Source: an uncultured delta proteobacterium
Lineage (GTDB): Bacteria; Desulfobacterota; Desulfobulbia; Desulfobulbales; BM004
Length of the DNA stretch: 64,000 bases
Direction: 5' to 3'
Assembly: GCA_963783905.1 (NCBI GenBank)
Contig: CAWAPG010000002.1
Coordinates: 65,032 to 129,031 of the forward strand
Part shown: piece by piece, positions 27,411 through 30,248 of the stretch
Numbering within the stretch: position 1 is the stretch's first letter
Layout of the letters: each line of letters begins with the position of its first letter
Translations under genes and position numbers: made by a program
Notes under the pieces: model-generated
Told to the model about the DNA's origin: nothing
Databases searched by the model: none
What the model saw: only the letters and a program-made list of their open reading frames with translations

Positions 27411-28211
27411 TTGCACGATATGGCTCATGGTGCCCCTCAATACGTTGCCTTTGGGAGTAGACTGATAGGTGTTCCCGAGGTACTGACCTTGGGCGTAAAG
27501 CCTAACTTTCATGATTATTCCGCTCTCCAGCAGCAGCAGATTCATGAGTCCAGGGTTATTTTATATCCGACTCTCAATTACGCCCAATTTTTTACCACCA
27601 TGGGGAAAAAGATCTTTCCCAGCGTTGAAACCTATCTCTACGCCGATGAAAAGTTGAAACAGACCACTCTTTTCAACCTGCTTGGCCTGCCGCATCCGAG
27701 AACAAGATTTTATCTGCAGCGGGATTTTACCCGCATTGAGGAGGATTTTGCCTTTCCTTTTATTGCCAAGATACCAAGGGCGTCGGCCCGGGGCAGAGGC
27801 GTTTTTTTAATCACCTGTCCGAAGGAGCTGGATCAGTATCTGCAAAAAACTAAAATTGCCTATATCCAGGAATATATCCCCCATGACCGAGACCTGCGGG
27901 TGATTTTGATCAACTATGAACCGGTGTTGGCCTATTGGCGCAAACGGTCCGCCCAGGATTTCAGAACAAACCTGGATCAGGGAGGAGAGATTGATTTTAC
28001 CGACATACCCCATGATATCATGCCCATGGTGCAGGATTTTGCCCGGCGGTGCAAATTCAATGATGTCGGCCTTGATCTGTTGACATATCAAGGGACCTGG
28101 TATCTGATTGAGGCGAATATGCTTTATGGGCGCGAGGGGTTAAAGAAAAAAAATATGGTTCTTAAGGAGATTATCCGGCAGAAATTGGTGGCAGGGACCC
28201 TTTTTGCCTGA
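27411..28211 (+). CDS. ATP-grasp (RimK-like) ligase family protein
   Basis: ATP-grasp motifs (FIAKIPRASARGRGVFL, EYIPHDRDLRV, EANMLYG). The start is TTG 27411 or ATG 27420. Confidence 0.8.
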   Translation: MHDMAHGAPQYVAFGSRLIGVPEVLTLGVKPNFHDYSALQQQQIHESRVILYPTLNYAQFFTTMGKKIFPSVETYLYADEKLKQTTLFNLLGLPHPRTRFYLQRDFTRIEEDFAFPFIAKIPRASARGRGVFLITCPKELDQYLQKTKIAYIQEYIPHDRDLRVILINYEPVLAYWRKRSAQDFRTNLDQGGEIDFTDIPHDIMPMVQDFARRCKFNDVGLDLLTYQGTWYLIEANMLYGREGLKKKNMVLKEIIRQKLVAGTLFA

Positions 28212-28282: not shown

Positions 28283-28651
28283 ATGGCTGAAGATGTGAAA
28301 AAAGAAGAAAAGCAGGCCGAGAAACCCCTGGATAAGATGACGGTGATTGAACTTCGCGAGGCAGCCAAGGAAGAAATTCCCGGCATTACCGGGGTGATCG
28401 GCATGAAGAAGGAAGAACTGCTGGAAGTTATCAAGGAAGCCAGAGGGATAAAGGATACTGCTCCAGCCAAGAAAAAGAAGATCAAAACCGCCGGGCCGAA
28501 GAAAAATATGTCCGTTAAGGAGATGAAACGGGAAATTGCCAGGCTTCAGGGCGAAAGAGAAACTCTGCGCCAGGAGAAAGACAAAAAGAAACTTGAAATT
28601 ATCCGTCGGCGCATAAACAGGCTGAAAAAAATGACCCGAAGGGCGGCATAA
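28283..28651 (+). CDS. Rho_N (SAP-like) domain protein with Lys-rich tail
   Basis: MTVIELREAAKEEIPGITGVIGMKKEELLEVI matches the Rho termination factor N-terminal helix-hairpin motif. The remainder is a highly basic coiled region. Confidence 0.7.
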   Translation: MAEDVKKEEKQAEKPLDKMTVIELREAAKEEIPGITGVIGMKKEELLEVIKEARGIKDTAPAKKKKIKTAGPKKNMSVKEMKREIARLQGERETLRQEKDKKKLEIIRRRINRLKKMTRRAA

Positions 28652-28849
28652 GGCCGCTGTTTTTCCTTTGCTTCCAATATCCATGCCCCAACAGGTTGGG
28701 CTCAAAAAAATGTAACGTGGTTTTTGAGGCCTTATGGGTTTCCCTTGGCGAGATTGATTACGAGCAGGGAAATCCAGGTATTTTTTTTCGTATGGAGAGA
28801 AATTTCCTGGTGAAAGGGCAGTCGTTGTGCCGGCGGGGACTTAAATCTA

Positions 28850-29614
28850 ATGAGCGGTTTTTTTATGGGCAGCGGGAAAAAGGAGCACCGGCATAAACTG
28901 AAGAATCAAGGCTTTGAAAATATATTGGCGGAGCAGAAGGACACTATTTCAGCAATAACTGGTGCGCGGCAAAAGCTGGAAATTGTCCTCAAATGCGACA
29001 CATCCGGCTCCATCGAAGCGTTAAATTCTGCGATCGATTCAATAAAGGTGCCCGGGGTAGCAATTGATATTATCAGTTCAGGTGTGGGCGCCATCAGCAA
29101 ATCAGACATCTTTATGGCGGAAACGGGCAGCAGGCTGATTATCGGCTTTGCAGTCGGACTTATGCCGCATATGGACCAGTTGGTCCTTGAGCACAATATT
29201 GAAATACGGCTCTTTGAGGTTATTTACAGGGTGCTGGAGGATGTTGCGACCATAGCCGGAAGTCTCATTCCTCCTGAATCAACAGAGGAAATAATCGGAT
29301 CTGCCAGGGTCATCGCACTTTTCAAAAGCAGCCGCAAGGGGATTATCATCGGCTGCGAAGTCACAGCAGGCAAGCTGGCGGCGGGCAATTCTTTCCGGAT
29401 CCTGGGAGTCATGGGACCCATATATTCCGGAACCATCAAGTCACTGCATATTGAAAAAGATGCGGTCAGTGAAGCGAAGAAAGGGCAGCGGGCGGGTCTG
29501 AAAATAAAAGATTTTAATAAGGTCAGAGTCGGCGACCTGGTTGAGTCCTATCGTTCAATCTCAGTCCGGCATGGCAAACCCTGGCAGCCCCAGGGGAAGA
29601 TTTATTATCCGTAA
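28850..29614 (+). CDS. stand-alone paralog of the translation initiation factor IF-2 C-terminal region (C1-C2 domains, no G domain)
   Basis: It is colinear with my memory of the IF2 C-terminus. LEIVLKCDTSGSIEAL matches LNLVLKADVQGSVEAI, then GVGAISKSDI, YRVLEDV, EIIGSARVIALFKSS and VRVGDLVE follow. Confidence 0.8.
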   Translation: MSGFFMGSGKKEHRHKLKNQGFENILAEQKDTISAITGARQKLEIVLKCDTSGSIEALNSAIDSIKVPGVAIDIISSGVGAISKSDIFMAETGSRLIIGFAVGLMPHMDQLVLEHNIEIRLFEVIYRVLEDVATIAGSLIPPESTEEIIGSARVIALFKSSRKGIIIGCEVTAGKLAAGNSFRILGVMGPIYSGTIKSLHIEKDAVSEAKKGQRAGLKIKDFNKVRVGDLVESYRSISVRHGKPWQPQGKIYYP

Positions 29615-29735
29615 GTGCAGAACTGTTTTAGTATCGCTGCAAATTCAGGATAATGCCTGATTTGCATAACAGAATGGTACAATTTTTTTCTGCGGCAATA
29701 AGATAATCGTGTCCTGAACCGGCTGTAGTTTTTTC

Positions 29736-29764
29736 TTGTATTTAGCCTTCCCCCTTGGTACAAT
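29736..29764 (+). promoter_or_regulatory. sigma70-type promoter candidate (TTGTAT-N17-TACAAT)
   Basis: -35 at 29736-29741 and -10 at 29759-29764 with a 17-nt spacer, about 135 nt upstream of the 46-aa ORF. Confidence 0.4.
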
Positions 29765-29899
29765 GTGGCAGTCCTAATGATAGCTAAATTTTAAAAAAAT
29801 AAATTATTTCAAGAAGTTGCTCGATAATTTTTATTCTGGTTTTTTTGATTTTGCCCTGAATCCTTTCGTGTTATCAATTAATATGTCCGGAGGTATCCT

Positions 29900-30040
29900 A
29901 TGCAAAGCAACATGAACACAAGGTCAGAATATCAACTACAGGATAGGCTCAGCAGAATTGCTGAAGGAATTTTGATGATGGCCGGGACGCTTACCGGCAT
30001 CTGGCTGTTGGCTGTAATAGCCATGTCCTTTATGAAATAA
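29900..30040 (+). CDS. 46-aa single-TM membrane peptide (not in ORF track, under 60 aa)
   Basis: ATG 29900 lies 7 nt after GGAGG. The product MQSNMNTRSEYQLQDRLSRIAEGILMMAGTLTGIWLLAVIAMSFMK has a polar head and a hydrophobic tail. Two terminators follow. Confidence 0.45.
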   Translation: MQSNMNTRSEYQLQDRLSRIAEGILMMAGTLTGIWLLAVIAMSFMK

Positions 30041-30050
30041 TTATATTATA

Positions 30051-30091
30051 CCGGTTTCCCCGTATTGCAAACCAGGGAAACCAGATTTTTT
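30051..30091 (+). terminator. rho-independent terminator
   Basis: Stem GGTTTCCC / GGGAAACC (30053-30060 / 30075-30082) followed by ATTTTTT. Confidence 0.6.
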
Positions 30092-30120
30092 ACCGGCTGA
30101 AGTAGTAAACCGGTACTAGT

Positions 30121-30149
30121 AAAAATCCGCTCCACGGCGGATTTTTTTT
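30121..30149. terminator. rho-independent terminator (bidirectional form)
   Basis: AAAATCCGC / GCGGATTTT stem with a 7-nt loop, an A-run upstream and T8 downstream. Confidence 0.7.
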
Positions 30150-30248
30150 GTCCAAAATCCTGTTTGCACAACTGTTGTTTTCAGGGCCTGGAAAGTGTAG
30201 ACTGCACAGCAAATTTTATAAACCCGTTGGCCATTTCCCGACAACATC

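Follow-up and report, generated by a model that had tools for sequence, protein, structure and literature searches.

The GTPase IF2, a translation initiation factor, is normally encoded by a single essential copy of infB, usually within the rimP-nusA-infB-rbfA operon. A 64,000-nucleotide stretch of DNA from an uncultured member of the Desulfobulbales, called the window below, carries a gene whose product resembles the C-terminal part of this factor. Is this gene a damaged infB, a second initiation factor, or a protein with another task? Our results describe a gene that is real and conserved among uncultured bacteria of the sulfur cycle; its product, to judge from the sequence, probably binds tRNA ends without GTP.

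A gene for IF2 domains C1 and C2

The frame that begins at the first ATG (28850-29614, forward strand) codes for 254 amino acids. Translation is likely to start at the second ATG (28865), which gives 249 amino acids, because nearly all top homologues begin at this second methionine; in relatives, an SD-like purine-rich stretch precedes the equivalent ATG. Upstream, an in-frame TGA (28811-28813, forward strand) closes an open frame of 266 codons and excludes reading a G domain into the gene, and the paralogue genes of relatives are likewise short closed frames without a G domain. No conserved leader RNA was found when relatives were compared. Selenocysteine at C49 was considered and rejected: in two genomes a TGA falls within the HMM match, yet the core contains no stop, and Ala occupies that position.

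The Pfam model of the C1 domain (IF-2, PF11987) matches residues 30-132 with 94 bits (cut-off 27), and EF-Tu-D2-type barrel models match residues 160-230. The model of bacterial IF2, TIGR00487, is matched at its end only (positions 363-585 of 587; 166 bits, below the cut-off of 424). The alignment of the protein with E. coli IF2 683-886 is ungapped; adding 646 to a position gives the E. coli number, and adding 597 the P. aeruginosa number. Domain C1 (domain III; 28970-29269, forward strand) keeps K48, D50, G53, E56, A57, V79, G80 and Y126, and C2 (domain IV; 29279-29563, forward strand) is a six-stranded beta-barrel. The paralogue thus consists of IF2 domains C1 and C2 plus a basic N-terminal tail, and lacks the G domain. 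A sequence-only reading of the window had proposed a gene complete by itself, colinear with the IF2 C-terminus, with both C-terminal domains and no GTPase domain. All four points hold, since TIGR00487 is matched by its tail alone, the stop lies upstream, and tblastn finds no piece of a G domain near the gene.

The same reading had called for a canonical nusA-infB locus elsewhere in the genome. The host genome (3.2 Mb, 100% complete) has one on another contig (C15): flanked by nusA and rbfA lies an intact infB of 905 amino acids, the fMet pocket of which is intact too. Its product is 34% identical to the paralogue. The two folds of the paralogue are those of bacterial IF2 (Z 15-17.5). Of what defines a bacterial IF2, the paralogue has C1 (PF11987) and the C2 beta-barrel; it lacks domain N and the translational GTPase G domain with domain II that TIGR00487 describes. 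Its gene lies outside the nusA-infB operon, whose copy is that on C15, and is non-essential and patchily distributed, most searched genomes being without it. It has gained the basic N-tail and a C-terminal extension with a W-x-P-x-G motif. Because the G domain is absent and the residues of the fMet pocket are replaced (see below), we do not class the protein as an IF2.

A split IF2 whose G domain is supplied by a separate gene was also considered; none was found, and the long PF00009 matches all look like ordinary factors. Replacement of IF2 by the paralogue was rejected as well: one carrier (G538) lacks infB, but it has an N gap at the expected infB site (L117:1005-1104), directly preceding ylxP-rbfA.

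Distribution of the family and its gene neighbourhood

A protein search yielded 710 proteins whose length is similar; the top 120 measure 238-302 amino acids, mostly about 249, and are 57-89% identical to the query. Genome scans gave 47 paralogue loci, in Thermodesulfobacteriota and Nitrospirota. In sampled genomes, where kin are not independent, the gene is present in 10 of 401 Desulfobacterota, 33 of 151 members of the host's order and 13 of 121 members of a Nitrospirota class; all 13 of the latter also have a canonical-type IF2 match. A profile search at all lengths separated about 15 short representatives (210-303 bits) from ordinary IF2 (under 200 bits), and no fused form was found, the longer matches all being ordinary IF2 at no more than 37% identity and without the family-type end. 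Stand-alone members, about 220-255 amino acids long, form one clade (SH-aLRT 98) in a quick tree with 64 rows from the family and 65 from IF2; as this tree has neither bootstrap nor archaeal outgroup, no donor is claimed. The family is under purifying selection, with dN/dS of 0.12-0.26 in close pairs and 0.18-0.24 for pairs of the window gene within its own subclade.

Conservation in relatives, which the sequence-only reading had made a condition for a genuine paralogue, is therefore evident as family-wide homologues in one clade with patchy presence in two phyla. That the gene is an artefact, a frameshifted infB or a decaying pseudogene, can practically be dismissed: a few relatives have frameshifted C-termini (L045:6046-6891, P0136, P0138 and P0144; sequencing error or local decay), against which stand the intact infB elsewhere, hundreds of full-length homologues sharing one length, a single clade with dN/dS well under 1, and a pocket that is remodelled.

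No NCBIfam family fits the 40 members tested, and the ESM Atlas clusters of the family bear only automatic IF-2 names. In mostly non-subscription literature we found neither a published description nor a curated family for a stand-alone C1-C2 protein; the family is an undescribed derivative of a known factor, hidden because database labels of its members read "IF-2" or "hypothetical". The ESM Atlas also holds clusters with the IF-2 domain only (212-283 amino acids) from Actinomycetota and Pseudomonadota, which are probably IF2 fragments. No carriage by phage or plasmid was found. One copy in a genome of another family (G527:C96:19122-19868) is host-genus-like, scoring 429 bits against 260-340 for others, and possibly reflects transfer or misbinning. 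Spread to Bacteroidota was rejected: the "Flavobacteriaceae chromosome" concerned (CP070731) is a patchwork of pieces of about 1.2 kb between 100-N gaps, and the Desulfobulbales fragment inside it is likely contamination.

Upstream of the paralogue lies a gene for a basic protein of 122 amino acids (28283-28651, forward strand; pI 10.1) with a Rho_N-like N-terminus. Its own PF07498 match is sub-threshold (E 0.0017; 18.7 bits against 24.9), and many homologues carry PF07498. The homologues as a whole, found in 209 of 401 genomes of the phylum, have about 110-130 amino acids, share an invariant T-V-x-x-L-R and carry a basic helix at the C-terminus; they make up a separate phylum-wide family, apparently unnamed. 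Some databases mislabel the small protein as Rho. A weak terminator-like hairpin at the end of its gene (28642-28658, forward strand) is not conserved in relatives.

The sequence-only reading had treated the two genes as a functional pair and suggested a survey of their co-occurrence. The survey speaks against a pair. A two-gene module would account for the genes being adjacent and co-oriented throughout the host genus, and is nonetheless highly improbable. By profile search the small protein adjoins the paralogue at 9 of 56 loci, all from the host genus or a contaminant from it. Outside the genus, among 138 genomes of the order, 23 have the paralogue and 13 the small protein, and none has both (2.3 expected); one extra weak small-protein match in order genomes sits in a 479-amino-acid frame. 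Five of nine other carriers in the phylum set do have the small protein, always on a different contig. The intergenic region is unconserved (76-211 nt), and what is shared within the genus is a whole block: neighbour and paralogue together with the TPM and ATP-grasp genes and those further downstream. The two genes adjoin through synteny at the level of the genus, and the Rho_N-like gene is a chance neighbour.

Outside the genus the neighbours of the paralogue vary freely, so gene context gives no functional clue. Translation genes adjoin it at two single loci, where by-eye inspection of translations places the paralogue after a SelB-like gene or an ispH-rpsA-sppA-ihfB-like run (L008:3962-6750 and L014:2002-6699), arrangements unrepeated elsewhere. 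Within the genus-level block, the RimK-like ATP-grasp gene at 27411-28211 (E 4.5e-15) is under all NCBIfam cut-offs. On the other side of the paralogue, 634 nt (29615-30248) separate it from the next conserved gene in the window, against 120-180 nt at four related loci (L003, L004, L005 and L010); the extra length, with a 46-amino-acid ORF (29900-30040) and hairpins, looks like an insertion in the host genome.

The fMet/A76 pocket and the surfaces around it

The pocket of IF2 that receives fMet-A76 consists of 12 residues, listed by Sprink et al. (PMC4783127). Their conservation was scored over 149 rows of the family and compared with 19 rows of Desulfobacterota IF2. The protein of the window retains six of them, five are replaced family-wide, and F809 has become K (K or R in 142/149). 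Of the retained six, F804, I812, C815, S844 and G862 each occur in 145-149 of the 149 rows, and K849 is variable across the family. The replacements are R846 to H (138/149), R847 to I (140/149), F848 to E or G (140/149), E860 mostly to Q (122/149) and C861 to V or A (146/149). [quoted passage not shown] Since the replacements are themselves conserved, the site has been rebuilt, not decayed.

In the window this region lies at 29441-29497 (forward strand), with S198 kept and H200, I201 and E202 in place of R846, R847 and F848; E860 and C861 have given way to R214 and A215, where the family has Q and V, and G216 is retained. The remodelling noticed from the sequence is thus a property of the family, with one correction: of the ECG triplet said to be replaced, E860 and C861 have changed and G862 is kept in 149/149 rows.

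The C2 domain as a whole has a net charge of about +5 in the family against 0 in IF2, and is better conserved (0.58 against 0.51 in the IF2 set). Its beta1-beta2 loop, FKSSRKG (residues 158-164; 29321-29341, forward strand), keeps F804; compared with that of IF2 it is both more basic and better conserved. An AMGP hairpin replaces the invariant R832 of IF2. K218, which is K in 139 and R in 8 of 149 rows, appears to be in register with a lysine that lines the A76 pocket of eIF5B, a factor that takes unformylated Met-tRNA (PMC4236685).

In C1, V79/G80 and Y126 correspond to P. aeruginosa V676/G677 and Y723, Y126 being E. coli Y772. In compact IF2, V676/G677 stack on A2660 of the sarcin-ricin loop (SRL) and Y723 on A1067 of H43, and the other partner of this tyrosine is the catalytic His of the G domain (PMC9192638), the domain absent here. 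G80 is retained in 148/149 and Y126 in 142/149 rows. The basic, His-containing N-terminal tail (residues 6-40; 28865-28969, forward strand) is predicted to be disordered (pLDDT below 50); its family median is 37 amino acids with 12 K+R, 3 H and 3 D+E, and it is short or missing in some Nitrospirota members. The C-terminal extension with W245-x-P-x-G (29564-29611, forward strand), not present in IF2, is ordered in the model (pLDDT 93 across the last block).

The AlphaFold model, built from 149 sequences, has pLDDT 92 and pTM 0.62. It is nearer to extended, tRNA-holding IF2 (TM 0.68-0.79) than to compact IF2-GDP (TM 0.42); at this pTM the orientation of the domains is not firm, and AlphaFold may be reproducing extended structures that are already known. 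A constitutively compact C1-C2 form is not supported, the model being extended and about 20 A rmsd away from 7unq/7unt.

Candidate functions

We consider it likely, from the features of the sequence, that the protein binds tRNA ends in some setting. RNA binding is suggested by the basic tail, the basic loop and the retained pocket scaffold, and specificity for the formyl group appears to have been lost. As a tentative proposal, somewhat short of probable, we suggest a GTP-independent accessory factor that, at the ribosome, holds on to the 3' ends of non-formylated tRNAs. The 3' half of infB would long ago have been duplicated, and the copy would have become a non-essential translation factor that needs no GTP. 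Its basic tail and the C1 surface with V79/G80 (for the SRL) and Y126 (for H43), which in IF2 stacks on 23S rRNA, would dock it at the factor site, and the C2 barrel would grip the 3' CCA of a non-formylated P-site tRNA, deacylated or plain aminoacyl. With the GTPase missing there would be no IF2-like cycling, so the role of the protein would be to stabilise a paused state or to check it, not to start translation; such states could be idle, stalled or mis-initiated ribosomes, the tRNA state and the condition being guesses.

The retained scaffold residues, the conserved I/E in place of the formyl-cradling R847/F848, the eIF5B-like K218, the basic, well conserved C2, the extended model and the purifying selection are consistent with a holder of tRNA ends. 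For docking at the ribosome speak G80 and Y126, retained although the catalytic His partner of Y126 is absent; they may be retained for folding instead. The main weakness of a ribosome-bound role is that the chief anchors of IF2 are missing: the complete factor binds the ribosome mainly via G and domain II, and C2 touches rRNA weakly (PMC9192638, PMC4611024). Further points against docking are the net acidic C1 (-5) and the loss in the family of D833 (P. aeruginosa D784), a contact between C2 and the SRL in the compact state; against a role in translation, the neighbours are not translation genes, the two loci above excepted. RqcH-type quality control was rejected as a setting: none of the 151 order genomes searched gave an NFACT_N match above the cut-off.

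A more specific version, a hitherto undescribed factor that recognises non-formylated or deacylated P-site tRNA and keeps ribosomes checked or idle, seems to us a rather speculative possibility; were it true, slow-growing anaerobes would gain a quality-control or hibernation step without known counterpart. No function has been assigned to the C1 domain of IF2 by itself (PMC4611024), and a naturally selected C1-C2 protein with a rebuilt pocket offers a way to test both the GTP-free roles of these domains and formyl specificity. The protein is small, soluble-looking and easily expressed; its value is limited because the genes around it give no hint of function and its hosts are uncultured.

The tRNA might instead be bound off the ribosome, the barrel and flexible tail holding free tRNA and C1 docking proteins; this is possible but doubtful. 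The best functional precedent is the tRNA-binding Pbp11 (PF0907, NF041207) of Thermococcales, a GTPase-free, stand-alone EF-Tu-domain-II-like barrel whose tRNA binding needs a flexible N-tail (PMC9540759). A flexible N-tail is also present in the paralogue family, 4 of 40 members match the Pbp11 HMM weakly (best E 8e-5), the PF0907 structure is matched with Z 12.4 (4pgo), and the C2 domain of IF2, when isolated, matches the complete factor in binding the acceptor end of tRNA (PMC4611024). The retention of C1 and of the rRNA-stacking residues would be left unexplained, however, and the tail is short or missing in the Nitrospirota members mentioned. The paralogue is not a Pbp11: it scores 12.8 bits against a cut-off of 100 (E 0.085) and has an additional C1, which separates tail from barrel, whereas Pbp11 is archaeal, consists of the barrel alone (about 100-116 amino acids) and binds the proteasome ATPase PAN.

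A factor for ribosome assembly or rRNA binding, with the rebuilt pocket taking a protein or an rRNA end, is unlikely. Trypanosome mt-IF-2, whose structures were matched in the fold search with our model, might offer an analogy, being a case of IF2 domains used outside initiation: it has a role in small-subunit assembly, and its domain IV pocket is filled by protein density, not tRNA (PMC8784144). The conserved basic loop and new conserved surfaces would also suit such a factor. In contrast to the paralogue, mt-IF-2 is a full-length GTPase whose assembly role rests on its N-terminal domain (PMC8784144); patchy presence (10/401 genomes) would be unusual for an assembly factor, and linkage to rRNA or assembly genes is missing.

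Quite improbable is regulation in trans of IF2 or another translational GTPase, in which the C1 of the paralogue docks on the G domain in place of that of IF2. Two elements that in IF2 are turned towards the G domain, the KxDxxGxxEA start of helix 9 and the strand preceding G80, are conserved, but E730K and A741R alter this same surface, the intramolecular C1 should out-compete the paralogue, and no stand-alone IF2 G-domain gene was found that it could complement.

A spare or decoy carrier of fMet-tRNA with IF2-like specificity is very improbable. All determinants for fMet-tRNA reside in the isolated C2 of IF2 (PMC4611024), six pocket residues remain, contact with the formyl group is partly made by the backbone (PMC4783127), and the host genome encodes fmt; yet R847, F848, E860 and C861, conserved in 18-19 of 19 rows of Desulfobacterota IF2, are replaced throughout the family. 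The factor that handles unformylated Met-tRNA, a/eIF5B, has domains III-IV homologous to those of the paralogue and a lysine two residues past the pocket Gly/Ala. It is a full GTPase, unlike the paralogue, which has no G domain and no archaeal/eukaryotic-type sequence: a/eIF5B models give 43-62 bits against cut-offs of 468-756, with E 5e-17 compared to 1e-48 for bacterial IF2. The resemblance of the two pockets is probably convergent.
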